Assembly: GCA_965207375.1 (NCBI GenBank)
Contig: OZ242274.1
Location: forward strand, 1,092,905-1,156,904
DNA length: 64,000 bases
Direction: 5' to 3'
Origin: Nitrosopumilaceae archaeon
Lineage (GTDB): Archaea > Thermoproteota > Nitrososphaeria > Nitrososphaerales > Nitrosopumilaceae
Each line of letters begins with the position of its first letter. Position 1 is the first letter of the stretch. The notes below the pieces were generated by a model that was not told the origin of the DNA, ran no database searches, and saw only the letters and a list, made by a program, of their open reading frames with translations. Shown here piece by piece: positions 1 to 19,670 of the stretch. The translations under genes and the position numbers were made by a program.

Positions 1-1018
1 TGATGGGGGTTAGGTCACCGCCAATATCATTGTCAGTTATATCAATTGTTATGCTAGAAGACCCAACTATTGTATAAGATGAGTGTGGGCGTATCGTAAA
101 CGTAACACTGCCGTCATTTTCGTTTGCATTATCATTGTTGGTAAATATACCGTAGGCTCTTGTATCTGGAGTTGTTATGTAATTACCTGGTGGTGTCAAA
201 GAGTCAATGAAATCTCCAGTCTGTGAAATGGTGATATGTACTGCTATGTCCTGACTTGCATCCCACAATGCATTTACTGTTGTGCCTTCAACCACTGATG
301 GATCCTGCGTATTCCACCTCAAATTACTTATTGTAGGTCCTGTAGGCTGTACAGTGGTAGTAGCACCAAACGAAGCCTCCCAATAATGTTGGCTGCTTTG
401 TATTATATCTGATGGAGTGTGTGAATGTATCCAGTCATAGAGGTATGGGTTATCTACAGTGCGTTCTACTATTGGTGAAACCTGGACAAGTAGTGATTCA
501 CCATTTACAACATTTCCTGCGTATGTAGTCCATGAGGCAGTACCTGTATTTGACCCTTCATTGATGGTTATCTTTTTGAAGAGCCAAGGATTGTTGCCTC
601 TAAATGTTTCAGTGTCGCTGCCAGTGCCACCTACTGTGGCCATATTGAAATTATCACATCTATTTGCTGTACCGTGTGGCTTGGAACTGTGAGATAATTG
701 ACAGTCATCAATTTGTACCCAAAATTCTATTTTCTCTCCTGTTTTGAGGCTCTCATCTAGAGTTACAGTTACTGTGAAGGGTTGGCCATGAGCTGTATTA
801 CTGGTTGTGACTTGGGCCTTGTTTATCTTGCCATCATCTCTATAAAATTGAGGGGACATTGTAACGGATGAATCCTCTTGGTGACAGAATTGGTTAGTCA
901 GTGATTTGGATCTAATGTCCCAACATAACTCATGTTCGGAGAATGCCTCTGGTGTTTGAACACCAAACAATAATGATACTGAAACTGCCATAATAACTGC
1001 AAAGTATAATGTTTTCAC
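1..1018 (-). CDS. Secreted/cell-surface protein, N-terminal portion (3' end runs off the window); paralog of 15739..17874
   Basis: Minus-strand frame is open from GTG at 1016-1018 to the window edge. The N-terminus MKTLYFAVIMAVSVSLLFGVQTPEAFSE is nearly identical to the signal peptide of the 711-aa ORF at 15739..17874. Later blocks (VSPIVERTVDNPYL, NDGSVTFT) are shared and lie in the same frame. It is absent from the ORF track because it is open-ended. Confidence 0.75.
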   Translation of the reverse strand, partial: MKTLYFAVIMAVSVSLLFGVQTPEAFSEHELCWDIRSKSLTNQFCHQEDSSVTMSPQFYRDDGKINKAQVTTSNTAHGQPFTVTVTLDESLKTGEKIEFWVQIDDCQLSHSSKPHGTANRCDNFNMATVGGTGSDTETFRGNNPWLFKKITINEGSNTGTASWTTYAGNVVNGESLLVQVSPIVERTVDNPYLYDWIHSHTPSDIIQSSQHYWEASFGATTTVQPTGPTISNLRWNTQDPSVVEGTTVNALWDASQDIAVHITISQTGDFIDSLTPPGNYITTPDTRAYGIFTNNDNANENDGSVTFTIRPHSSYTIVGSSSITIDITDNDIGGDLTPI

Positions 1019-1027
1019 AAAATTAAC

Positions 1028-1037
1028 GGGGGGGGGG
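1028..1037. repeat. G10 homopolymer (C10 on the coding strand) between a TATA-like element and the GTG start of the surface-protein paralog
   Basis: Counted directly. The flanks are identical to those of the G9 tract at 17884-17892. Confidence 0.9.
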
Positions 1038-1134
1038 TTCTAAAAATGTTGCGATTTGAACCAAGAGGTAAAATGAATCCATAATTGCCATCTGAGACAT
1101 GATTCATAATTAGATCTGGGCACGGATTTTTGCT

Positions 1135-1242
1135 CTTGTTAGGCGTGATTTTCTAATTACGACTCACCTCTTAGAGGAAACAGGAATATCCGTATGGACC
1201 CTAAACTTGTTAGGCGTGATTTTCTAATTACGACTCACCTCT
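1135..1242. repeat. Two identical 37-nt direct repeats separated by a unique 34-nt spacer (CRISPR-like geometry, only 2 repeats)
   Basis: cttgttaggcgtgattttctaattacgactcacctct occurs at 1135-1171 and 1206-1242. The spacer at 1172-1205 and the sequence after the second repeat are unrelated to each other. Confidence 0.85.
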
Positions 1243-1500
1243 CTGGATTATTTTGACTGCATTTTACCTATACGTACAAACATCAAAAAATGTCTGTATC
1301 TGTTACCTTTGCTTTGAATTTATGGTAATTTTAGGCATCAAATTACCTTTTTAAAAATAGAACAAAAATCTAGGATGATGTTAACTGTTACAAATGTTTC
1401 ATGTATCTAGATGAACAGTTATGCCTGTATGATTTTAGATGATCTGAGAAAACCACAGATCAGGCACAACATACAAAAACCAGATAATCGTTTCACATAT

Positions 1501-3096
1501 GTGCAGACAAAATTTATTTTTGTGACAGGCGGTGTTATGTCTGGCCTTGGAAAGGGTGTAACTACTTCCTCTATTGCCAAACTATTGCAACTGACCAATC
1601 AAAAAGTATCTTGTATCAAGATAGATCCATACCTAAACTATGATGCAGGTACGATGAATCCTGTAGCTCATGGGGAGGTCTTTGTCACAGAGGATGGAGG
1701 AGAATGTGATATGGATATTGGAAACTATGAGCGATTTCTAAATCAAAATATTCCAAAATCCCACAATATAACAACTGCCCAGGTTTATTCTAGTGTTATT
1801 GAGGCAGAAAGAAAGGGACAATATCTAGGTGCATGTGTTCAAATCATTCCCCATGTAACTGATGAAATTAAAAAAAGAATAAAGTTGGTTGCAGAATCTG
1901 AAGAATTGGATATTCTAGTTGTAGAATGCGGCGGAACCGTAGGCGACATTGAAAGTCTACCATTTTTGGAGGCGTTAAGACAGATGAGAGTAGAGGCTGG
2001 ATCAGAAAATGTATTGTTTGTACATGTTACACTAGCCCCATCACTAGAGGTGGTAGGGGAGCAAAAAACCAAACCCACACAGCACAGCGTTCAAGAATTG
2101 CGCAGAATCGGTATTCAACCAGACCTGCTTGCAGTAAGATGTACACAACCGTTGGAGGAAAAGACAAAACAAAAGATTGCATTATTTACCAATGTGGGAA
2201 CCAAAGACGTGTTTTCATGTCATGATGTAAAATCAATATTTATGGTTCCACAGATTCTATATGAGCAGGGAATCATTGATACTATATTCAAAAAATTTGA
2301 CAAAGTAGGATTGGTAAACACTGCAAAAAGCTGGGACAAATGGAGTGTCATAGTTCATAACATGACAAATCATGCAGGCAAGGTAAACATAGCAATGGTT
2401 GGAAAATATGTAACACTAGCAGACAGCTATGTAAGTGTAAATCATGCACTCAAACATGCGGGAGCAAAAATTGGAAAATCGATTTTGATAGACTGGATTG
2501 ATTCTGAAGAGTTGGGAAATACCAGCAAACTGCAAAACTATGATGGAATTTTGGTGCCTGGAGGGTTTGGTACTAGGGGCGCTGAGGGAATCATTCAGGC
2601 AGCAAATCTTGCAAGAGAGAAAAATATTGCATATCTTGGAATTTGTTTTGGATTTCAGCTGGCAGCAGTTGCGTTTGGCCGCAATGTTTGCAATTACAAA
2701 GAAGCAAACTCTACTGAAATCAATCCCGACACCGAAAATCCAATTATTGATCTGCTGCCAGAGCAAAAAAAGATCTCTGATATAGGGGGCTCACTGAGAC
2801 TAGGAGCAAACGACATTCATATACAGGATAACACACTTGCAAGACGCATCTACAATTCAGATATTATTTCAAAAAGGCACCGTCACAGATATGAAATAAA
2901 CAAAGACTATATCCGTGAATTTGCAGACAAGGGATTAATTTTTACCGGACAAAGTGATAATGGTAAAAGAATGGAGATCTTGGAAATTCCAGATCATAAA
3001 TTTTTCCTAGGTGTGCAGTATCACCCAGAATTTAGCAGCAGGCCCGGTTTTCCTGAGGAATCTTTTGAGGCCTTTGTGAGTGCTGCAGCAGGCTAG
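1501..3096 (+). CDS. pyrG: CTP synthase
   Basis: The ORF is 1411..3096. The conserved N-terminus [16 protein letters not shown] follows the GTG at 1501, so that is the probable true start. The C-terminal glutamine amidotransferase domain has the GICFGFQ and HRHRYE motifs. Confidence 0.95.
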
Positions 3097-3515
3097 CAGT
3101 ATTGCTTTAACCTCTTGATAGAATCGTCAATTTTTGGCAGATCAGACTTAAAATCAGAATTGCCCTCTAAGAGTCTAGTATAATATACGTCAGCATCATC
3201 TACTGCCTTTATGATGTCTGCCTTGTAGCAAATCATTGCCTTTTCAATAATTTCTGTATCCTTTTCTAATTCTGATAATGTGGATGTATCTGTCAGACTT
3301 GTACGTAGTCTGTTTGCAATGGGTTTGAGTTTGGGTGTATTTTTTGTGGCTTCTGATTGCAAAATAGAGCCAAACATCGCACCTGTATCTGCAATTTCTG
3401 GACTGTCTGAAATTCGGTGCAATCGCCTGTTATAGTGATTTAATGCACGCATTATAATCTCAAACCCTCCCTCGTTTTTGATAAAAATAGAACCAAGCCA
3501 TGTTTTTTCTGCCAA
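3093..3515 (-). CDS. Hypothetical protein (140 aa, helical)
   Basis: Clean ORF that converges on pyrG with a 4-nt overlap. No recognisable motif. Confidence 0.6.
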   Translation of the reverse strand: MAEKTWLGSIFIKNEGGFEIIMRALNHYNRRLHRISDSPEIADTGAMFGSILQSEATKNTPKLKPIANRLRTSLTDTSTLSELEKDTEIIEKAMICYKADIIKAVDDADVYYTRLLEGNSDFKSDLPKIDDSIKRLKQYC

Positions 3516-3542
3516 TATGACAATGGTATGTTGCTGTAGTAT

Positions 3543-4544
3543 TTATTCCAACTTGCAAATCTCATAAATTTTTTGCCGTGCATCGCGAATTGAGATCTTC
3601 TTTTTTACATACCCTTTTTCTAAAAGATGACTCAGTGCCAATCTGACGGTTCTCTCAGGTAACAACGTTTTATTTGCAAGCTCCTTTTGAGTCATCTCGC
3701 CTTCGTACTCTAGCGTCTTTAAGAGCAATTTTGAGCTAGGTGGCATGCTTAATAGCTCCTTTGCAAGATTTACCTTTTTTGCAAGTGCAGAAATTGCAGT
3801 AGAATCTTGTTTTAATCTGATTATTTTGGCAGCAGGAGAGAATCTAGAACACTCTACTAGTTTTTTTACGTTATACCTGATAATGCCGTCTAAAACAACC
3901 TCACAGTGCATTCTTGCAGAAATATCATCAATCTCGATGGTACTATCATTGGATACTATAAGGGGTCTGCGTGTAACATCAAGCGAATTGACAGAAATAA
4001 TTCCAAATACTGGAGATTCTTGAAAAATCACGGGTCCTCCTGCAGACATTGAATATGCCGATGAGCCTATGGGGGTGGAAATAATTATTCCGTCACTGTT
4101 GTCATGCCAGACCTCCTGTCCGTTTACACGCAGGGTGTGCTCCATCAACATTGCACTTTTAGATGAAAAAACTGCAACATCATTTAAAATGGTGTAGGTA
4201 TTTTTCCCGTCTATTTTCACACCAAGCCTTGGAACCTCCTCGACTTCGTATTTCTTCCTCTTTAGTTTAGATACATATGATACAAACTCTTTGTAATCAA
4301 TTTGTGCCAAAAATCCACTAGCTTCGCCCTCGCTGATTCCAATTACTGGAGTTGTGGCATCACGTGTGTGGTGAAAGTAATTTCGTACTCCCTTATCTCC
4401 CCCTAAAACCAAAATACAATCTGCTGATTTTGCCTTGGATTTTGGGCCTATGGTAAAATTACCAATGTCTGCATCATCTAAAATTTTCTTAATTTTTTTA
4501 ATCGATGATTCAGATACGTCTGTACTGTATATTCCAATCTGCAC
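3543..4544 (-). CDS. nadK: NAD(+) kinase fused to a C-terminal winged-helix DNA-binding-like domain
   Basis: GGDG-type motif (VLGGDKG), NDVAV, and STPIGSSAYSMSAGGP. The last ~65 aa (KTLEYEGEMTQKELANKTLLPERTVRLALSHLLEKGYV) look like a MarR/TrmB-type wHTH. Confidence 0.9.
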   Translation of the reverse strand: MQIGIYSTDVSESSIKKIKKILDDADIGNFTIGPKSKAKSADCILVLGGDKGVRNYFHHTRDATTPVIGISEGEASGFLAQIDYKEFVSYVSKLKRKKYEVEEVPRLGVKIDGKNTYTILNDVAVFSSKSAMLMEHTLRVNGQEVWHDNSDGIIISTPIGSSAYSMSAGGPVIFQESPVFGIISVNSLDVTRRPLIVSNDSTIEIDDISARMHCEVVLDGIIRYNVKKLVECSRFSPAAKIIRLKQDSTAISALAKKVNLAKELLSMPPSSKLLLKTLEYEGEMTQKELANKTLLPERTVRLALSHLLEKGYVKKKISIRDARQKIYEICKLE

Positions 4545-4581
4545 ATGGAAATATCAAAATTGTATAATAAAAGCCTACAAA

Positions 4582-5454
4582 CTAGACCTGCTTGAAATCA
4601 AGCATGTTATAAAAATACGATGCATTAGTAGAAACTGCACCCTTTTCTGGAATTTTTTGCAATCCTATCTGTTTAGTTTCTAATGCAGCCTGTACAGAAC
4701 CACCTGCAAAGCACAATGCCCACAATGAATCTCTTTCTTTTAGTATAGTACAGGTAAATATGGCACCAAATATGTCTCCGATTCCTGTCGTATCATAAAC
4801 CTCTTTGTTTGGAATCTTCAAAGAGTACATCCTGTTACCGTCTAGCATCGATATTTGGGTTTTGTTGGTACAAAGCACGTATTTTACACCTAGTTTTTGT
4901 AATTTTTTCATACCCTCAATATCTGATCTGCCTACAAGTTTTTCCATCTCTTCGACATTTGCCTTGATTGCAGTTACGCCCAAAAGATCAATATCTGTTT
5001 TTTCTAAAAATATTCTTGACTCTGCATCTACCCTTCTCAAAAATCCTTGGGGATCCAAAAACACAAACTTTGAATTGCCTTTGATTTTATCAAAGGTCTC
5101 AGAAGATATCTCATCCATAACCGGATTAACAATTACTCCATCTGATTTTGATTCCGTATATGAAATGGGTTCGCACCTGTTTGCAATGTACAGCTGGCGC
5201 TCTGTCCCGTCTATGTTGATTTTAAATTGTGTGGTGGGAATACTTGCTAGTGAATCATCATGCTGAATTTTGTGTGCATCTAAATAGTCAGCACTTGAAA
5301 AATCATCTCCGAATTTTGTATGTAAATTTACATCAAACTTGAATTTTCTAGCCGCATGACTACAATAGCATGCAGAGCCTCCTACCTGTTGATATTTGGA
5401 ATCGCCAATGTGTATGTCATCAATTGTACAGTGCGCATAAATGTCCAGCTTCAT
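4582..5454 (-). CDS. PfkB-family carbohydrate/nucleoside kinase
   Basis: C-terminal PfkB signature DTTGIGDIFGAIF. The length (290 aa) is typical of the ribokinase superfamily. Confidence 0.8.
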   Translation of the reverse strand: MKLDIYAHCTIDDIHIGDSKYQQVGGSACYCSHAARKFKFDVNLHTKFGDDFSSADYLDAHKIQHDDSLASIPTTQFKINIDGTERQLYIANRCEPISYTESKSDGVIVNPVMDEISSETFDKIKGNSKFVFLDPQGFLRRVDAESRIFLEKTDIDLLGVTAIKANVEEMEKLVGRSDIEGMKKLQKLGVKYVLCTNKTQISMLDGNRMYSLKIPNKEVYDTTGIGDIFGAIFTCTILKERDSLWALCFAGGSVQAALETKQIGLQKIPEKGAVSTNASYFYNMLDFKQV

Positions 5455-5692
5455 TTGCTACAAATGATCCATCTCAAGATTTAGGGGTTTGCTTTTTCTT
5501 ACAGCTTGCACACAATATTTGCCCCTTTCCTGTAATCAACTCGACATTGGAACTAAGACACATGTGACACAGTCCTTTCATGCTGTTATTTTATACGATG
5601 ATCTTCCATTAAAGAATAGAGGACAAAACGTCTAGTTTGGACTATAAGATATAAACTGCAAGATTATAAGTAGGAAAAAACCATGCCTACCT

Positions 5693-5980
5693 ATGCCATT
5701 AAAACGTGCTAGTAGGGGGCGCACAAAGGGAGGAAAAGGTTCAACAGGCGTTGTACAATGCTCCAACTGCGGTCAGACCGTTCCCAAGGACAAGGCAAAA
5801 AAGGTCACATCTAGATTAAACTTGGTAGAGCACACACTAGCAAAGGAGCTTCGCGCACAGGGCGCATATATTGCATCTCCCAAGGTACTTAACTGGTATT
5901 GTATTTCATGTGCTATTCATTTTAAGATTCTAAAAATTAGATCCGCAGATAATAGACGAAAGCGTGGCAGGCTGCGATAA
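5693..5980 (+). CDS. rps26e: 30S ribosomal protein S26e
   Basis: MPLKRASRGRTKGGKGSTGVVQCSNCGQTVPKDKA matches the S26e N-terminus and zinc-ribbon pattern. Confidence 0.9.
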   Translation: MPLKRASRGRTKGGKGSTGVVQCSNCGQTVPKDKAKKVTSRLNLVEHTLAKELRAQGAYIASPKVLNWYCISCAIHFKILKIRSADNRRKRGRLR

Positions 5981-5981
5981 T

Positions 5982-6554
5982 TCAGTCTAACTTTTTGATA
6001 ATAGTAACAATTCTTTGAATCAGGGTAATGCCTGCAATTATTATTACAATTATGACTGCAATTTCCATCATTGCAGGAATCATTCCAATTATTGCAATTA
6101 CTAACAACCTTTCTGCCCTTTCGCCAATTCCAATTCCTTGTAATTTTATATTCAGAGCATCTGCCTTTGAGCGAGCATAACTTACCAACAAAGACAGTGT
6201 GATTGCAAGTACAACTAGATGTGGTTCTGCATGACCTCCAACAAGAATTCCCAAAAAGATTGCAACCTCTGCAATCTTGTCAAACATTGAATCCAAAAAT
6301 GAGCCCTTGGCCGATGTTTTTTTGGTGACCCTTGCAACCTGTCCATCAACAATATCAAAAAATCCTGAAATCAAAAGCAAAACCCCTCCTAAAATTAATG
6401 CATACTCAAAACCTATGCCGTAAACAATTGCAGAAATAAATGCAAATGCCAACCCGATTGTTGTCCAAAAATTTGGAGACATTCCTGTACCTGCAAAGAT
6501 ACGTCCTATGCCTTCTAGTGTTGGTTTGAGACGTTCTCTTAGGTTGTTTAGCAT
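5982..6554 (-). CDS. CDP-alcohol phosphatidyltransferase family protein (archaeal polar-lipid head-group synthase)
   Basis: D-G-x2-A-R-x8-G-x3-D-x3-D motif (DIVDGQVARVTKKTSAKGSFLDSMFDKIAE). Polytopic hydrophobic protein. Confidence 0.85.
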   Translation of the reverse strand: MLNNLRERLKPTLEGIGRIFAGTGMSPNFWTTIGLAFAFISAIVYGIGFEYALILGGVLLLISGFFDIVDGQVARVTKKTSAKGSFLDSMFDKIAEVAIFLGILVGGHAEPHLVVLAITLSLLVSYARSKADALNIKLQGIGIGERAERLLVIAIIGMIPAMMEIAVIIVIIIAGITLIQRIVTIIKKLD

Positions 6555-6819
6555 GGGATTTTACAAGTTTTGATGTATATATAAAATAGATCCGGCATTT
6601 GTTCTGTTGGATTGTGTATATTGATTTGCCAAATGATGATGCAAGCCTCTTTACAATGAGACTTTCATTCGTACCCATACATAGGACAAGAGAATAGCTT
6701 TGCTGTGACAATACACTCCATTATAGAAACATCAGAAATTAGATTCAAAAATGCAATTCTTGATAAATGAATCTCACAGACGATTGATTTAATACCTTTT
6801 TAATCCATAATATTACAAT

Positions 6820-7128
6820 TTGGGAATATATGCACAATATCTTGAACAGTTAACCACCTTTGATGAGATCACCGAAGAAAGAAAGAAAATACTCTCAAAG
6901 ATTTCTGAGATCAGGGGTAGAGATGTTCTCACATTTGCATCTGACATATCCAAAGGAAAGTCTCCAATAACAATCGAATACTCCGATCTTCTTCCGGTCC
7001 AAGATCAACTAGAAAACTTGTCCGGAAATGCAATCGATATAATACTTGAAACACCGGGAGGTATAGCGATGCGCAAAAGTTCCTACCCAGCGATTCTACA
7101 CAGGACTACGCCAGCACATACAAAATAA
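6820..7128 (+). pseudogene. 5' fragment of a ClpP-fold serine protease (SDH/SppA-like), truncated by IS insertion
   Basis: The sequence reads ...AIDIILETPGG, then crosses the IS630 left end at 7064. The last ~21 codons are IS sequence. Only ~80 native residues remain. Confidence 0.6.
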
Positions 7129-8500
7129 TGAGAAATCACGCCTGATTTTTTCCAAACTGTACAAAAAAAATACACAAGGTAAGAAAATATCTGCAAGAAC
7201 AGTAAAAGATCAGATCGATTTAATCCAAACATGAAAGAGGCCAAGCTCTTATCTGATATACGCAGAACCGAAAAGGAAGGACGTCGTGCCCGAAGATTAA
7301 GTATGTTAATCGTACTTGCAAATATGGATTACATAGTCACAGCAGCTGCTGTCACATATAGATGCAACAGAAAAACAGTATCACTGTGGCGTGACAGAAG
7401 AATTCAATACGGAAACAACATAAGTAAAATACTCGAGGCACTTTCAGACAGACCTAGGTCAGGCAGACCTACAAAGATAAGCAAAAAACATCTAGACAAA
7501 GCCAAATCATGGTGTGACATACGCACATTTACGCCAATAGAGATGCAAAATTATCTTGAAAAAATTTCAGGAGTCAAGTTGAGTCTATCACAGACAAGAC
7601 GATACATCAAAAAGTGGGGACACTCTTGCAAAAAAACATCTCCCCTGCACATCAAAAGAGCATCACCTGAATCTGTAGCAAAATGGTATACAAGCAGCAT
7701 GGGCAAAGTGAGATACTATGCAAAGCAAGGATATGCAATAGCTACCATGGATGAGTCCCACTTTAAGGACGCAGTGCTTTCTACAAAATACTGGGCAAAG
7801 AGAGGCCTTTGCATATTCATGCCATGGTCAGGCGGACACCACAGATTCTCAATGCTGTGTACTATAACTGATAATGGCAAGCACTTTTTCAATCATACAG
7901 ACAAAGTAAACACTGACAGCTTTTTAGAGCACATTGAAAAAGTATACCAAAAGGTGGGCAAGATGGTATTGTTTTTGGATGAGGCACCCTGGCATGCATC
8001 TATTGGTGCACAAGAATTTTTCGAAAAACGAGACATTGTATTGATATGGTATCCTGTGGGTCATCCGTATCTTAATCCCGTAGAGGAGATCTGGAGTGTA
8101 CTCAAGCGTACAATTGATTACTCTATACGATACTCAGACATCAAGACACATTTGACAGCAGTATACGGATTTATCAAAAAATATGAGTTTGATTATGATT
8201 TAAAAAAACATTGGAAGAGAAAACCTCCTGCTGGTATAATGCGACCCTTTGTGCGCTCTGACACAAAACACAATGATAGGATCCAGGCATTACAGGTAAG
8301 CAGTAAGCCAAGAAATCGTAACTGAACTATACATGTATTGATGGTTTGTACAATTGTTGTATGTATTTACAAAATGATACCGTGTGGAATCATCATGCTG
8401 TCTTTGCTTAATCTTGGTGTATTGTGTAAGTTGTGTAAGATTTTATTCCTGCGTCTAGTTTGCTGATTTTGTGCTGGGTACGAACTTTTGCGCATCGCTA
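7064..8500 (+). mobile_element. IS630/Tc1-mariner family insertion sequence (1437 bp) with 28-bp TIRs and a TA target duplication
   Basis: The left end tagcgatgcgcaaaagttcCtacccagc (7064-7091) matches the reverse complement of 8473-8500 with 1 mismatch in 28. A TA dinucleotide sits immediately outside both ends (7062-7063 and 8501-8502). A single transposase ORF lies inside. Confidence 0.9.
7231..8325 (+). CDS. IS630-family DDE transposase
   Basis: N-terminal HTH region, then MDESHF ... LFLDEAPWH ... NPVEEIWSVLK, which is the D, D, E spacing pattern typical of IS630/Tc1. Confidence 0.85.
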   Translation: MKEAKLLSDIRRTEKEGRRARRLSMLIVLANMDYIVTAAAVTYRCNRKTVSLWRDRRIQYGNNISKILEALSDRPRSGRPTKISKKHLDKAKSWCDIRTFTPIEMQNYLEKISGVKLSLSQTRRYIKKWGHSCKKTSPLHIKRASPESVAKWYTSSMGKVRYYAKQGYAIATMDESHFKDAVLSTKYWAKRGLCIFMPWSGGHHRFSMLCTITDNGKHFFNHTDKVNTDSFLEHIEKVYQKVGKMVLFLDEAPWHASIGAQEFFEKRDIVLIWYPVGHPYLNPVEEIWSVLKRTIDYSIRYSDIKTHLTAVYGFIKKYEFDYDLKKHWKRKPPAGIMRPFVRSDTKHNDRIQALQVSSKPRNRN

Positions 8501-9306
8501 TATGTCTTTTTTATGGTTTCTTTTTTCAGGCTTTTTGTAAATGATGCAACCTCTGTCTCTATTTTTGCCTGTGGTGTTTTTTCAATTAATTTTAAAAGTG
8601 CACTACCAACTATTACTGCGTCAGCTCCTGCTCGAACATATTTTTTTACATCTAGAGGAGTTGAGACTCCAAATCCGACTCCTACCGGAATCTTTCCACC
8701 TGTCTGCCTTTTGACATTCTTTATTGCCTGTATGGTATAATTTTTGATTCCTGTATTTGTCCCTGTTGTGCCATACACTGCCACAAGATACAAAAATCCT
8801 GATGTCACCTTTGCAATTTTTCGTATTCTAGCGCTATCTGTATTTGGCGAAATTAGAAAAATCGTATCTGCATTGTCTTTTGCAGCCTTGAGATATTGGG
8901 CCGACTCTTCAATTGACATGTCTGGCAAAATGAATCCGTCAATTCCTGCCTTTTTTGCCATGCTGATAAATTTACTATATCCCTTGTGATACAGTATGTT
9001 TGTATATGTCATTAAAACTAGGGGGATATCTGTCTGCTTTCTGATTTTTTTAACAATTTCAAAAAACCTCCCAGTCGTAACTCCTCTTTTTAGTGATATA
9101 GTACCTGCATTTTGAATAACCGGCCCGTCTGCCAAGGGATCTGAGAAAGGAAATCCCAACTCAATAATATCTGCTCCTCCTCTGATAAGACCATTGACTG
9201 CTGACATTGTGACCCTCTCATTTGGAAATCCTACCATGGTATAGCAAATCAGAGCTCTTTGGTGCCTTGATTCTAATTCCTTGAATTTTTCTTCAATTTT
9301 TGACAT
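8455..9306 (-). CDS. trpA: Tryptophan synthase alpha chain (C-terminal ~15 codons and the stop are supplied by the IS630 TIR)
   Basis: [17 protein letters not shown] motif. Last gene of the trp operon. The frame crosses the IS right end at 8500 and stops at 8455. Confidence 0.9.
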
Positions 9307-10477
9307 TATCCAAGTACTCCTGTACTACCTCCACGTCCTTGTCCCCTCTGCCAGATAATGTAACCACTATTGACTCTGATTTTTTTGATTTTTTTGCAAC
9401 ATTGATTGCCTCTGCAATTGCATGTGATGATTCCAATGCAGGAATGATGCCTTCAGTTTGTGTCAATTTTAAAAACGCATCAACTACTTGCTTGTCTGTG
9501 GCACTGTGATATTTTACACGATTAATCTCCTTTAGATGCGCATGTTCAGGACCCACCCCTGGATAATCAAGTCCTGCTGAAATACTGTGCGTCTCCTTTA
9601 TCTGACCTTGTTCATCCTGTAGCAGATAAGTCATCATTCCATGTAAAACCCCTCTGCTTCCTGCAGACAGCGTGGCTGAGTGATACTGTGTATTGAGTCC
9701 TTGACCTGCTGCCTCTACACCGATGATGTCTGCATCTGTATCTATCATTGGATAAAACGTACCTATCGCATTTGATCCTCCACCAACACATGCAATTACG
9801 GTGTCTGGCACTGTTGAAATTGCTTTCATTTGCTGTTTGATCTCTTGGCCTATTATTGCCTGAAAATCTCGTACCATGACAGGATACGGATGCGGTCCTA
9901 CGGCAGAACCTAGTAGATAGTATGTGGATTTTACGTTTGTAATCCAGTCTCTTATTGCCTCATTGATTGCATCCTTTAACGTCTGGGAACCTGCTTTTAC
10001 GGGATGAACCTTTGAACCAAGCAGATTCATTCTAAACACGTTGAGTTTTTGCCGTATGGTGTCTTTGTAGCCCATGTATACCTCTGCCTTCATTCCAAGT
10101 GCTGCACACGCCATGGCAGTTGCCACTCCATGTTGGCCTGCCCCTGTTTCTGCAATGATTCTTTTTTTCTTCATTCTTTTGGCCAAAAGTGCCTGACCTA
10201 GGGTATTGTTGATTTTGTGTGCCCCACCATGAAGCAAGTCTTCTCGCTTTAGGTATATTTTTGCCCCACCTATTTTCTCTGTCAGGTTTTTGGCATAATA
10301 CAAAGGCGTGGGTCTTCCTGCATATTCTCTAAGATAATGAGTCAACTCACTTTTGAATTCTTTGTCGTTTTTAATTTTAAGATAATTTTCCTCTAGTTCC
10401 TTGATTGCAGGTACTAGTGTTTCTGGTATGTATCTTCCACCAAACTCTCCAAACCTTCCATCCTTGGGATATCTCAA
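9293..10477 (-). CDS. trpB: Tryptophan synthase beta chain
   Basis: HGGAHKINN (PLP lysine region) and GGGSNAIG. Confidence 0.95.
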
Positions 10478-15738: not shown

Positions 15739-17874
15739 TTAATTTGTAGCCTCTATTTTCTTTAAGGTGTCAGCTATTTGTTGCCATAGTGGATTAGAAT
15801 ATTTTTGGGTATTGTTTTGGGCTTCGGCTGCAGTCATAGGATTATCATGTTCTGTAATGTTAAATGCTGCCAAGACTCTATTCCATAAATCAGCTTGTTC
15901 TTTTACAACTTCAATTAAAGTTGCATTTATCGTGTATGTTGGTTCAGGTACTGGTTCTACTATAGGTGTTGGTTCTACTATAGGTGTTGGTTCTACTATA
16001 GGTGTTGGTTCTACTATAGGTGTTGGTTCTACTATAGGTGTTGGTTCTACTATAGGTGTTGGTTCTACTATAGGTGTTGGTTCTACCTGTGATGTATCTT
16101 GAGCAACGGCTGATGTTTGGTTAACCTGTGGTACGTGTATTTCCTGTGGCTCTTGCTGTGGTGTATTTTGTGTTGCATTTTGCTGCTGCTGCTGTTGTTC
16201 AATTGCAGCCTCACGCTCTTGTAAGATATTTGCAATCTTGACCCATAATGGACTAGAATATTTCTTTGTATTTGCCTGTGCCTCTGCTGCAGTAAGTGGA
16301 TTATCATGTTGTATCACTCCAAATGCTGCAAGTGCTCTATTCCATCTGTCAACATGTTGGTGACCGTGATGTACTTGACTTGCAAGGTACTTTATGTCCT
16401 CAATTAGTTCTGGGTCAGCTGTAGGTATTGGTATAGATTCTGGTACAATTATCGGTGTATCTTGTGCGATATTTGATGTGTGGTTAATTTGTGGTACGTG
16501 TATTTCCTGTGGTTGCTGTGGTGAATCTTGAGGTTGCTGTGCGGCTGCATCCCTTGCAGCCTCTAATTTAGCCAGTTCTTGAGCAACTAAACCCCAAAAT
16601 GCATTATTGTATTTTTTTACATTGGCCAGAGCCTCTGCTGCAGTCATAGGATTGTCATGTTGTATTTCTCCAAATGCTGCCAAGACCCTATTCCATCTGT
16701 CAACGTGTTCTGCACCAAGATGAGTTTGTTGTGCCATTATCTTTGCACCGTCTATTACTGATGGATCAATTTCATCATACGGATTTTCTGGTATTGGAAC
16801 ACCGGTTGTGAGTCTGGGTTGTCCGTCACCGCCACCATCATCATCCTGTATTAAGATTACAGCACGCGATGGGTCACCTATAGTATATCCATTACCTGGA
16901 AGTAACGTAAATGTGACGCTTCCATCTGCTTCATCTGTGGAATCATCTAATGTAGCTAGACTGACAGTCCGGGCGTTTGATGTTAATATAATTGACCTAT
17001 CGTTCAGTTCAAAATTAAGCCGAGCATATTCTCCTACTTGGGAAGTTCGATAATTTACTGTTACAGGATTTATTGATGTGGCTGGAGGTGATATAGTTAT
17101 TTCTGCTATAACGGTAGCACCTTCAATCACTGATACAGGATTAATTGTGGAAGGTAGAATTGTCACTACATTAGCTGTTCCAATCTGTGTCTCCCAAAAA
17201 TGTTGGCTAGCATACCTTGCATCAGACGGATTATTTGGATGTATCCACTCATGGAGGTATGGGCTATCTACAGTGCGTTCTACTATAGGTGAAACCATGA
17301 CAAGTAGTGATTCGGGACTGCCACCATAATTGGCTACATTTGTAGACCATGAGGCACTACCTGTATTTGACCCTGCATTGATGGTTATCTTTTTGTAGGT
17401 GACAGGAAGGTAGGTGGGGTTGGTTCCTAAATCCCTGTCGGCCGTGCTACTGTAGGTTGCAAATGTTTCAGTGTCGCTGCTAGTGCCGCCGAGGGTGGCA
17501 TGAGTGGTACTACTACATAGGTTTGCTGCACTTGACCTGACAGAAGCGTGAGATGCATGACAGTCATTAAGCTGTGCATAAAATTCTATTTTCTCTCCTG
17601 TTTTGAGGTGCTCATCTAGAGTTACAGTTACTGTGATGGGTTGACCAGAAGCGGGATTGTTTAGTGTGACTAGGGCTCTGTTTATCTCATTGTCATCTGT
17701 ATAAAATTGAGGGGCCATTGTAACGGATGGCACAATTGGGTGACAGGCAGTGTGGAAATTCGTTTCGCCGTTTATGCGGCAAAGCACATGGTCAGAAAAT
17801 GCCTCTGGTGTTTGAACACCGAGCAATAATGATATAGAAACTGCCATAATAACTGCAAAGTATAATGTTTTCAC
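15739..17874 (-). CDS. Secreted multi-repeat cell-surface protein (711 aa)
   Basis: GTG start with a signal peptide. The N-terminal ~345 aa are paralogous to 1..1018 and end in a Calx-beta-like block (DGSVTFTLLPGNGYTIGDPSRAVILIQDDD). Three ~65-aa helical modules follow, joined by Q/P-rich linkers and (EPTPIV)x7. Confidence 0.85.
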   Translation of the reverse strand: MKTLYFAVIMAVSISLLLGVQTPEAFSDHVLCRINGETNFHTACHPIVPSVTMAPQFYTDDNEINRALVTLNNPASGQPITVTVTLDEHLKTGEKIEFYAQLNDCHASHASVRSSAANLCSSTTHATLGGTSSDTETFATYSSTADRDLGTNPTYLPVTYKKITINAGSNTGSASWSTNVANYGGSPESLLVMVSPIVERTVDSPYLHEWIHPNNPSDARYASQHFWETQIGTANVVTILPSTINPVSVIEGATVIAEITISPPATSINPVTVNYRTSQVGEYARLNFELNDRSIILTSNARTVSLATLDDSTDEADGSVTFTLLPGNGYTIGDPSRAVILIQDDDGGGDGQPRLTTGVPIPENPYDEIDPSVIDGAKIMAQQTHLGAEHVDRWNRVLAAFGEIQHDNPMTAAEALANVKKYNNAFWGLVAQELAKLEAARDAAAQQPQDSPQQPQEIHVPQINHTSNIAQDTPIIVPESIPIPTADPELIEDIKYLASQVHHGHQHVDRWNRALAAFGVIQHDNPLTAAEAQANTKKYSSPLWVKIANILQEREAAIEQQQQQQNATQNTPQQEPQEIHVPQVNQTSAVAQDTSQVEPTPIVEPTPIVEPTPIVEPTPIVEPTPIVEPTPIVEPTPIVEPVPEPTYTINATLIEVVKEQADLWNRVLAAFNITEHDNPMTAAEAQNNTQKYSNPLWQQIADTLKKIEATN
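15953..16086. repeat. Seven perfect 18-bp tandem repeats plus a partial eighth, encoding (EPTPIV)n
   Basis: The unit ggttctactataggtgtt repeats without a single mismatch from 15953 to 16078. The partial copy runs to 16086. Confidence 0.95.
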
Positions 17875-17883
17875 AAAATTAAC

Positions 17884-17892
17884 GGGGGGGGG
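17884..17892. repeat. G9 homopolymer (C9 on the coding strand) upstream of the 711-aa surface-protein gene
   Basis: Counted directly. Flanks are identical to those of the G10 tract at 1028-1037. Confidence 0.9.
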
Positions 17893-17993
17893 TTCTAAAA
17901 ATGTTGCGATTTGAGCAAGTGTACCAGATCAGATCAAGCTCAAATCCGCACCTAATACAATAAATTGATTATTCATTATATTCCTACATAAAA

Positions 17994-19670
17994 TTAATCT
18001 AATCTTGGCACGGTGATTGCTCCTTGTGCTGCAGATCCTACAAGTGATGCGTATTTTGCCAAAGCACCCAAAGTGTAATTTGGCTCAGGACGCCTCCATT
18101 GCTGCTTTCGCTTTGTCATCTCCTTCTCAGATACGTGAAGATCGATACCTGATGTTTTGATATCTATTGTGATTTTGTCATCATTTTTGATCAACGCAAT
18201 TGGTCCTCCAACATATGCCTCTGGTGCAACATGACCTACCATAAAACCTCTAGTACCTCCTGAAAATCTCCCGTCTGTCACCATTGCAACCTTTTTGCCT
18301 AGGCCCTGACCTACAAGTGCTGCAGTAGTTGCAAGCATTTCTCGCATTCCTGGTCCGCCCCTTGGTCCCTCATATCTGATTACGACCACTTGACCTTCAT
18401 CGATTTGACCCTTTGATACTGCCTCAAATGCATGTTCCTCCTTGTCATATACTCGTGCTCTTCCTGTAAACTGAGTCATCTCAACTCCTGCTGTTTTGAT
18501 TACTGCCCCCTCTGGCGCAAGTGTTCCCTTGAGAATAACTGCTGTGCCTGTAGGATGTAACGGGTTATCTACAGGTCTAATAATTGACTGTTCAGGCTCT
18601 GGTATGTTTGCCGAATCTAGATTCTGTTGTATTGTCTTACCTGTTACCGTAATGCAGTCTCCATTTAGTAGTCCATTGTCTGCCAATTTTTTTAAAACAA
18701 ACGGTATACCTCCTATTTTATCAAGACTATTCATGACATAGCTTCCGCCTGGCTTCATATCTGCAATATGTGGAGTCTTTTTCCTGATTGCCTCAAAATC
18801 TTCATATGTTAGTTTGATTCTAGCCTCATTTGCCATTGATAGTAGGTGTAAAATTCCATTAGTTGAGCCACCTACTGCATTTAGCACCGTAATTGCATTT
18901 TCAAATGCCTCCCAGGTCATAATGTCCCTTGGTCTGATATTTTGCTCAACTAGTTTTGCACATGCAGCACCTGTATCATATACCATTTTTTGGCGGCGTT
19001 TGTCTTCTGCAGGAGGACTAGCACTTCCAGGCAATGCCAATCCTATTGCTTCTGAAATTGATGCCATTGTATTTGCCGTAAACATACCTCCACAGGAGCC
19101 TGAGTTGGGACATGCAGTATTTTCGATATCTTTGAGCATCTCAAACGAGATCTGACCTGCATCATATGCTCCTACTGCCTCATACACGTCTACTATTGTA
19201 AGCTCCTGTCCATCTAAAATACCTGGCATTATTGTTCCTCCGTACACAAAAACTGAAGGCAAGTTCAATCTAGCCATTGCCATCATGGTTCCAGGTAGGC
19301 TTTTATCGCATCCTGCTATTCCCACCAATGCATCATACTGATGTGCCCTCATCATTAATTCAATAGAGTCTGCAATTATCTCTCTTGAAACCAAAGATGA
19401 CTTCATCCCCTCGTGACCCATTGCAATTCCATCACTTACTGCAATTGTGGAAAATATTCTTGGTGTTGCCCCATTGTCGGTAACGCCTTTTTTTGCATTT
19501 TCTGCAAGTGCTGGCAATAATATGTTGCAAGGTGTTGCCTCATTTCCGGTATGACAGACGCCTATCATTGATTTACTAAGATCATCATCATCTAGGCCCA
19601 TGGCCTTGTACATTGCCCTGTGTGGTGCACGGGCAGTACCTTCTACCACATTTTTACTTGAAATTTCCAT
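17994..19670 (-). CDS. ilvD: Dihydroxy-acid dehydratase
   Basis: [19 protein letters not shown], and TDGRFSGGT motifs. Confidence 0.95.

Follow-up and report, generated by a model that had tools for sequence, protein, structure and literature searches.

Poly-C tracts as candidate promoter-type contingency repeats of putative surface-protein genes in a sponge-associated thaumarchaeon

Introduction

Random on/off switching of genes, driven by slippery repeats, is typical of bacteria adapted to a host. It is considered here in an archaeon. The DNA at issue is a stretch of 64,000 nucleotides (the window, from here on) from a member of the Nitrosopumilaceae (GenBank assembly GCA_965207375.1, contig OZ242274.1, positions 1,092,905 to 1,156,904), and the elements at issue are two poly-C tracts within it, each lying 9 nt 5' of the GTG start of a secreted-protein gene. 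The two genes, called gene 1 and gene 2, are paralogous. I argue that their tracts are, on balance, probably contingency repeats of the promoter type. The strongest support for this view comes from homologues in a sister thaumarchaeon, since these carry runs of C15, C6TC12, and C19 with frame-dependent states. The described systems closest to this one are all bacterial, and the resemblance to them is functional, none of them being homologous.

In Treponema pallidum, as in the window, paralogous surface-protein genes (tprE/G/J/L of the tpr family, and tp0126) have a G/C homopolymer of about 7-11 nt upstream (PMC7864442). The tract, a poly-G run in the promoter of what are outer-membrane protein genes, lies just upstream of the transcription start, its length varies within and between isolates, and with length goes a change in promoter activity (PMC7864442). 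Treponema differs in that its promoters are of the bacterial sigma-70 type, its mRNAs have leaders, and the effect was established by experiment, whereas the window presents archaeal promoters of the TATA and transcription factor B (TFB) type, mRNAs that probably begin without a leader at GUG, and an effect that is predicted.

The vlp genes of Mycoplasma hyorhinis are said, in the work of Yogev (1991) and of Citti & Wise (1995), to combine a conserved 5' non-coding region and signal peptide with a divergent mature part that contains in-frame tandem repeats. In these genes, as in maa2 and vmm, a homopolymer sits in the spacer between the -35 and -10 elements, and slippage turns members of the family on or off (PMC2268961). 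The window genes are built on a similar plan, with an invariant block from -40 to +38, a promoter-proximal poly-C tract, and an 18-nt coding repeat present in 7.5 copies in one strain and about 1.9 in another. The vlp system differs in having a poly-A tract, lipoproteins of a bacterial kind, and a -35/-10 promoter, while the spacer in the window runs from TATA to start and the encoded proteins lack a lipobox (the predicted cleavage site, QTPEA/FS, has no Cys). No homology to Vlp proteins was found, and there was no Pfam or PDB sequence match of any kind. The resemblance is one of mechanism only.

Expression may also be graded. The fim2 and fim3 genes of Bordetella have a poly-C promoter tract that does this. 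In Neisseria meningitidis, a poly-G tract between -35 and -10 of porA and a poly-C tract at -35 of opc grade the expression of surface genes, by altering the spacing of elements or the contact with a regulator (PMC7864442). These cases differ from that of the window in that they are bacterial, concern single genes or few, have neither a shared 5' cassette nor a mosaic family, and rest on switching that was experimentally verified.

A different arrangement is found in the intragenic poly-G/C loci of Campylobacter, Haemophilus, and Neisseria, where tract length decides the reading frame (PMC8437040, PMC11868660). These loci resemble two homologues from the sister lineage, P0006 and P0008, which have C15-C19 after the start codon and alleles in and out of frame. 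P0006 and P0008 are archaeal, and the window tracts, unlike intragenic loci, lie upstream of the start codon and so cannot act by frameshift.

The sequence-only reading from which this work began held that phase-variable expression of surface proteins was not known to have been described in these archaea. A literature search agrees, having turned up no paper on repeat-mediated phase variation in any archaeon; what it returned was limited to surveys of homopolymeric runs in the coding sequences of archaea (PMC2831843). Phase variation is not mentioned in a comparative genomic study of sponge Thaumarchaeota (PMC7848895), and a review from 2025, looking back over a hundred years of phase variation, still lists its archaeal distribution as a matter to explore (PMC11868660).

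Two Tracts within One Shared 5' Block

Direct reading of the sequence places a run of ten G at 1028-1037 and a run of nine G at 17884-17892, just as had been claimed. Both genes lie on the minus strand, where the runs are of C and the layout in both cases is ACATTTTTAGAA-C10/C9-GTTAATTTT-GTG. Relative to the GTG, the tract occupies -19 to -10 in gene 1 and -18 to -10 in gene 2. The window has a GC content of 38.3%, and a G/C homopolymer of this length had been called exceptional for so AT-rich a genome. It is indeed: the two tracts are the only G/C runs of at least 7 nt in all 64 kb. Dinucleotide-preserving shuffles predict 0.06 runs of nine, and the observed count was matched in none of 100 shuffles.

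Identity between the two upstream regions, supposed at first to extend about 50 nt, covers 40-41 nt (1019-1059 and 17875-17914), and within it the length of the G run is, as claimed, the sole difference. The identity runs on for 38 nt into the coding region with zero substitutions, as far as 981 and 17837. Beyond this shared block, genes 1 and 2 are about 75% identical. The two tracts are not independent events, because both lie inside a duplicated or gene-converted block.

Upstream of the tract (1038-1059 in gene 1, 17893-17914 in gene 2, both on the minus strand) the block reads TCAAATCGCAA-CATTTTTA-GAA. It may be taken as an A-rich segment resembling a TFB recognition element (BRE), followed by an AT-rich, TATA-like octamer, CATTTTTA, at 1041-1048 in gene 1 and 17896-17903 in gene 2. 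Between tract and GTG (1019-1027 in gene 1, 17875-17883 in gene 2) lies GTTAATTTT, which reads as an AT-rich proximal element. The upstream portion is alike in 4 of 4 copies (two paralogues in each of two strains), its first base excepted.

It is conceivable that the difference between C9 and C10, present in the assembly, is of biological origin, and conceivable too that it is an error in a long-read consensus. A general problem with homopolymers is disfavored, because 54 of the 74 homopolymers of at least 7 nt lie inside long, intact open reading frames (ORFs) with no frameshifts.

Longer Tracts in a Sister Lineage

Homologues of the family occur in another sponge thaumarchaeon (ENA ERZ25069580, about 41% GC). 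P0008 is encoded on a pair of contigs that occur together, one at 75x coverage and one at 15x, and P0006 is a paralogue in the same genome. Their 5' cassettes have, in order, a TATA box, an ATG, a leader peptide, a poly-C run, and a hydrophobic signal-peptide core. The TATA box (TTTTATAA or TTTTATAG) stands 28-29 nt before the ATG, and the leader begins M(V/N)ISLIRQLRVKQ.

The tract of P0006 is C15 (L008 10092-10106), and here the leader, the run of Pro, and the body share one frame. The tract of P0008 takes two forms, C6TC12 and C19, one in each strain (L006 9893-9911 and L007 9899-9917). With either form the body lacks one C for the correct frame, yet in both strains it is the same intact ORF of 608 amino acids, identical in sequence. 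The frame of the body has no start codon 5' of the hydrophobic core, and the gene caller begins the protein after the signal peptide. Over 12.8 kb, identity between the contigs that encode P0008 is 99.7%, and the tract by itself holds 4 of their 6 gap openings and 9 of their 11 gap positions. No other G/C runs of at least 7 nt are found in the three loci, of about 20 kb each. All this matches the textbook picture of an intragenic contingency repeat.

Out-of-frame members are given wrong starts or cut short by gene callers, as when P0008 was called without its signal peptide, and families of this sort are therefore under-annotated in metagenome-assembled genomes of symbionts.

The 5' regions of the window genes and of the sister lineage have no significant nucleotide similarity beyond the C run itself (p of about 0.1-0.5). 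A CGCAACATTTTTA-like string common to both is accordingly treated as chance. The family may thus have acquired poly-C at its 5' end on two occasions. Two further sponge-thaumarchaeal proteins, P0012 and P0015, which share C-terminal repeats, have runs of Gly (APGGGGGL and SFGGGGRQ) just before their signal-peptide cores. These runs could be poly-G tracts of the same kind.

A Second Strain and the Diversification of the Family

The sequence-only reading had suggested that orthologous loci be compared. A contig from the ENA, ERZ25069711:ctg14618_73x_l, is syntenic with the window and 94.6-98.8% identical to it in housekeeping DNA. The cassette is found at both loci of this second strain, with a tract of C10 at each (16970-16979 of the gene-1 locus, L003; 11774-11783 of the gene-2 locus, L002). 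The lengths over two paralogues and two strains are thus 10, 9, 10, and 10: the gene-1 tract is C10 in both strains, and the gene-2 tract is C9 in the window and C10 in the second strain. The latter difference is the sole change within an otherwise invariant block, and it is one of four indels in 11.9 kb over which the strains are 98.8% identical.

The invariance of the block has sharp limits. In its four copies, from -40 to +38, there is besides tract length a single synonymous C/T difference, at the gene-1 locus. Between the strains at the gene-2 locus, 11 substitutions and a 5-nt indel fall in the segment from -125 to -41, and none fall from -39 to +38. Adjacent intergenic DNA differs by about 13%. 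From about +80 onward, the genes at the gene-2 locus can no longer be aligned between strains.

The N-terminal domains encoded at orthologous loci are 20-60% identical, despite flanks that are 95-99% identical (window 2-1018 and 15739-17874; L002 11793-13829; L003 16989-18938). Seven members of the family are known, and they resemble one another in mosaic fashion, with variants of the signal peptide cross-distributed between loci. Gene 1, for example, agrees with P0002 over its first 90 residues, while the gene-1 locus of the second strain encodes a protein that matches P0001. Such a pattern indicates cassette exchange or gene conversion among paralogues. The family, in short, is made of a constrained or homogenized 5' cassette joined to a rapidly diversifying body.

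The second strain has two transposase genes (DDE_Tnp_1/4, IS66 family) between pyrG and the orthologue of gene 1 (L003 14256-16724). The window has no transposase gene between pyrG and gene 1, and has a DDE_3-type transposase gene at 7231-8325 that the other strain shares.

Promoter Geometry

The position of the TATA box can be used to judge whether a transcript is leaderless, following the logic of Brenneis et al. (PMC2151090). In the canonical archaeal layout, TATA is centered near -27, an AT-rich proximal promoter element (PPE) lies near -10, and a pyrimidine at -1 precedes a purine at +1 (PMC5316973, PMC2151090). A TATA model, seeded with TTTAAATA, was refined on upstream regions, 57 in all, that came from the window and from three related loci. 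The seeded model was used in place of an unseeded Gibbs sampler, which missed the TATA motif in such AT-rich DNA. The box begins 28-35 nt before the start codon in 28 of 40 good matches, with a mode of 29-31. Of these 28 leaderless-type promoters, 19 have a pyrimidine at base -1. A distance of 28-35 nt being the usual one, most transcripts of the clade look leaderless, in agreement with the canonical layout.

How do the two window promoters compare? The octamer CATTTTTA lies at -30 to -23 in the C10 state and at -29 to -22 in the C9 state. This is the canonical position, but in sequence the octamer fits the TATA model of the clade poorly. There is a T at -1 and a G at +1, and TTAATTTT occupies -8 to -1, but the bases at -10 and -11 are C. 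Typical spacers between TATA and start hold a G/C-only run of at most 5 nt overall, and of at most 3 nt in this genome. The run in the cassette, at 10-11 nt, is far beyond this.

P0003, the closest homologue outside the species, has no poly-C. It is encoded within L001 (ENA ERZ27263419 k119_90958, 1-9632), on a contig of 15.7 kb and 46.5% GC. A good TATA box, CTTATTTA (5.5 bits), lies at -29, where by ungapped alignment it is homologous to CATTTTTA. An AT-rich decamer, TTAAATTTCC, stands in place of the tract, and the ungapped spacing is that of the C9 state. The contig resembles a mobile element, with genes for a ParB-methyltransferase, a NikA-like protein, and a D5-type primase as neighbors, which suggests that mobile elements or viruses can carry the family about.

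A Model for Promoter-Type Switching

I propose that C9 and C10 are hypermutable simple-sequence repeats, located in the core promoter that belongs to a 5' expression cassette common to the genes. The cassette would consist of the BRE-like segment, the TATA-like box, the tract, the AT-rich proximal element, GTG, and signal peptide, in that order, and would head a family of secreted surface proteins that is mosaic and diversifies fast in this archaeon, itself associated with sponges. A C would be gained or lost in replication, through slipped-strand mispairing. Each slip would alter the distance from the TATA-like box to the GTG, since the TATA boxes of this clade mostly lie about 30 nt before the start and transcripts are seemingly leaderless. 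The change in distance would displace the transcription start relative to the start codon or else weaken initiation. The paralogues would then differ from cell to cell in level of expression, or in whether they are on or off. The sister lineage would represent the translational version of the same device, in which a run of C15-C19 between ATG and signal-peptide core sets the frame.

A broader claim can be put forward only tentatively: that sponge Thaumarchaeota run repeat-based phase variation in two forms, one by frameshift and the other an archaea-specific, transcriptional form that works by shifting a leaderless start. If this were so, then promoter geometry would be coupled directly to translatability, and the loci would be the first simple-sequence contingency loci described in Archaea, with a mechanism that has no bacterial counterpart. 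If the tracts switch expression at all, then archaeal symbionts of animals share with bacteria the logic of bet-hedging against host recognition or viruses, and an archaeal TATA promoter, eukaryote-like as it is, can be tuned by repeat slippage. The loci would also offer a natural test system for TATA-to-start distance, the position of the 5' end, and the translation of leaderless mRNAs.

All four repeats (the window's C10 and C9, and the two C10 tracts of the second strain) are uninterrupted and of a length at which slippage is expected (about 8 G/C or more). Strong polymorphism of tract length between strains is seen in the sister lineage only.

Several points weigh against the proposal. The sequence-only reading had set the tract between a TATA-like element and the start codon. 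The tract does occupy the expected position of a spacer, but the element, CATTTTTAGAA, scores at most 0.4 bits in the clade's TATA model, where 5-10 is typical, and a better match, GTTAATTT, at 5.9 bits, lies downstream of the tract. Natural promoters here tolerate spacings of 28-35 nt, making 29 and 30 nt both ordinary, and expression would not have to switch when C9 becomes C10. Classic mutagenesis of Sulfolobus promoters is reported to show that the RNA polymerase of archaea tends to start at a set distance from TATA, so a change in spacing would move the start site rather than abolish transcription. The earlier claim of slippage-type length variation is supported in part by the one-unit difference between strains at the gene-2 locus and by the longer tracts of the sister lineage, and is tempered by the fact that the four copies show lengths of 9 and 10 only. 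Contig names suggest that the related assemblies, and probably that of the source genome as well, are products of PacBio HiFi reads and metaMDBG, and such an assembly could conceivably have a G/C run of 10 nt wrong by one base. A leaderless GUG start would be unusual, given that leaderless mRNAs in Thermococcus use AUG in about 95% of cases (PMC5316973). Finally, the support from the sister lineage is by analogy, not by orthology of the tract, because the 5' regions lack significant similarity outside the C run.

Alternative Explanations

One alternative is that the tract is an inert passenger: poly-C arose once and was spread by duplication or gene conversion, and the difference between 9 and 10 is either neutral slippage or an error of consensus. 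This is unlikely, in my estimation, yet deserves serious weight. The whole block of 80 nt has been homogenized among paralogues, with the cross-distributed signal-peptide variants showing gene conversion at work, and for this reason conservation of the tract need not mean selection on the tract. A passenger would also sit well with the restriction to two lengths, with spacings of 29 and 30 nt that both fall within the natural range, and with assemblies that probably derive from long reads. It sits poorly with the intrinsic instability of an uninterrupted G/C run of 9-10 nt, a kind of run found nowhere else in over 150 kb of related DNA. Nor does it lead one to expect a second lineage in which poly-C came, apparently independently, to the 5' end of the same family and there takes frame-dependent states; and the coding regions bear no sign of the homopolymer errors that a faulty consensus would imply. 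A role for the block may instead lie in recombination, as anchor or hotspot for the swapping of N-terminal cassettes, with the tract incidental or stimulatory. Similarity within the family is mosaic, orthologous loci have non-orthologous N-terminal domains, and conserved 5' and 3' segments border a variable core, all as this idea would have it. Against it, nothing links the tract to points of crossover, the divergence sets in at about +80 and not at the tract, a single G run cannot make an intramolecular quadruplex, and the frame-setting tract of the sister lineage is left unexplained. I think there is hardly any chance that it is the main explanation.

The remaining alternatives keep the tract near the promoter but move the promoter. 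It is improbable, though some facts speak for it, that the true TATA box is GTTAATTT(T), just 3' of the tract, with transcription beginning near +21 and translation at an ATG at codon 10. The tract would then occupy the BRE or upstream position rather than the spacer, and any effect of it would come by way of TFB or upstream contacts. GTTAATTT is the region's best TATA match (5.9 bits), the junction cccG-TTAATTTT resembles the ccg-TTTAAATA of other promoters, the 36 nt from box to codon-10 ATG are at the edge of the observed range, and an ATG start would avoid the unusual leaderless GUG (PMC5316973). The protein argues otherwise: initiation at codon 10 leaves a hydrophobic core of 10 residues and no charged N-region, whereas initiation at the GTG gives 19 residues and a Lys. 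Moreover, P0001 and P0003 have no Met at that place, and P0003 has no other start at all and a good TATA box 29 nt before codon 1. An AT-rich sequence near -10 is just what a normal proximal promoter element would supply (PMC5316973, PMC2151090), and the block conserved among paralogues reaches 31 nt further upstream than this box. Less probable still is a start within the tract or at its 3' edge, directed by a weak TATA-like sequence, TTCAAATC, at -42 and yielding a short, C-rich 5' untranslated region. Tract length, or reiterative transcription, would in that event tune the leader and not the spacing of the promoter. In gene 1, TTCAAATC scores 3.1 bits and predicts a start near -12, and the homology between paralogues begins exactly at TTCAAATC, just as paralogue homology in the sister lineage begins at TATA. 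But the score drops to 1.5 bits in gene 2, the first base varies (it is C in L002), the resulting leader on direct reading contains no Shine-Dalgarno-like sequence, and most genes here look leaderless. The tract would be promoter-proximal under any of the three promoter readings, the one I favor included.

Other mechanisms were considered and rejected. An intragenic frameshift switch at gene 2 is ruled out by an in-frame stop (TAG, at -24 to -22 in the C10 state) or by the lack of an upstream start from which a frame could be set. Gene 1 does have an upstream ATG (cagATGgcaattATGgat..., window 1085-1105, minus strand), which reads through the tract in frame at C9 or C12, not at the C10 that is observed. 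The ATG is kept at the gene-1 locus of the second strain. As a general mechanism a leader from an upstream ATG fails, since neither gene 2 nor its orthologue has a start upstream, whatever the frame. A link to the neighboring pyrG (CTP synthase), through reiterative transcription on C runs, was set aside on the grounds that gene 2 is not beside pyrG and that the tract belongs to the cassette.

The Encoded Proteins

Gene 1 is represented by its 5' part (2-1018, minus strand), which runs off the window. Its GTG is at 1016-1018, and its signal peptide, MKTLYFAVIMAVSVSLLFGVQTPEA/FS, is encoded at 938-1018. Gene 2 (15739-17874, minus strand) encodes 711 amino acids, also from a GTG, and has no in-frame start codon 5' of it. 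Read from the GTG, both proteins begin MKTLYFAVIMAVS(V/I)SLL(F/L)GVQTPEA/FS, with Lys at residue 2 and a hydrophobic segment of 19 residues. A start at codon 1 is favored by P0001 and P0003, neither of which has Met at codon 10, and by the lack of any alternative start in P0003.

The N-terminal domain of the gene 2 protein is lineage-restricted and beta-rich. An exhaustive search of 1.84 billion representative proteins gave a single full-length relative, and a profile search with the domain gave few matches, missing P0001 and P0002. An Ig/Calx-beta-like domain follows at about residues 245-347, of a type common to more than 1,600 large, adhesin-like repeat proteins. Then come three helical repeats with the motif HVDRWNRVLAAFG..NPMTAAEA..KYSSPLW, and Gln/Pro-rich linkers join the parts. 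The helical repeat is about 60 residues long and its three copies, in the C-terminal half, are encoded at about 15750-16760. Its homologues are found in Thaumarchaeota, Chloroflexi, and Acidimicrobiia (Poriferisodalis/Poriferisocius) that live with sponges, and it may be a cross-phylum domain specific to sponge symbionts. Pfam and PDB sequence searches with the proteins, the helical repeat included, came back empty. An AlphaFold model of the gene 2 protein has a mean predicted local distance difference test (pLDDT) score of 52, too weak for fold searching, and gives the coarse view of a beta-rich N-terminal half and three helical repeats.

Gene 2 contains a second, in-frame repeat of variable length. 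Within 15952-16086 (minus strand) lie 7.5 perfect copies of an 18-nt tandem repeat (100% matches by Tandem Repeats Finder), encoding a (PTPIVE)n linker. The orthologue in the second strain (L002 13429-13499) has about 1.9 copies and instead a (CAA)n tract encoding 24 Gln.

I infer that the gene products are located at the surface. The claim that these are paralogous surface-protein genes fits with their signal peptides, the Ig/Calx-beta-like domain, the C-terminal repeats held in common with bacteria of sponges, and the hypervariable, mosaic alleles, all of which suit a function at the surface or in interaction with a host or phage. In these respects the genes resemble the usual targets of repeat-based switches. 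Other members of the family are found in sponge-associated microbes, and the paralogues P0001 and P0002 belong to the same genome as the window. The gene 2 protein and its orthologues have no exact entry in the protein collection, whether the first residue is taken as M or V or the start as codon 10. Scans of genome, metagenome, and viral contigs with the protein, with protein alignments, and with a flank-gap-flank DNA pattern gave nothing.

Neighboring Sequences

The source is an AT-rich thaumarchaeon resembling Nitrosopumilus. A dihydroxy-acid dehydratase gene (17994-19670) adjoins gene 2, and the nearest named relatives of its product, at 83-88% identity, come from Nitrosopumilus and Nitrosarchaeum. 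The product is 100% identical to a protein of one contig of 2,156,695 bp, to which six more proteins of the window are exact matches. An Rfam search of the window gave no match.

Upstream of gene 1, a perfect 37-nt direct repeat, CTTGTTAGGCGTGATTTTCTAATTACGACTCACCTCT, occurs in two copies on the plus strand (window 1135-1171 and 1206-1242), separated by 34 nt. The dimensions are those of a clustered regularly interspaced short palindromic repeat (CRISPR) array, yet there are two copies only. No further copies were found in the window or the other loci, and no viral contig gave an exact match. The block of about 150 nt that holds the pair is missing from the orthologous site of the second strain. 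The plus strand is predicted to fold into a modest hairpin (-6.9 kcal/mol, z = -2.4).

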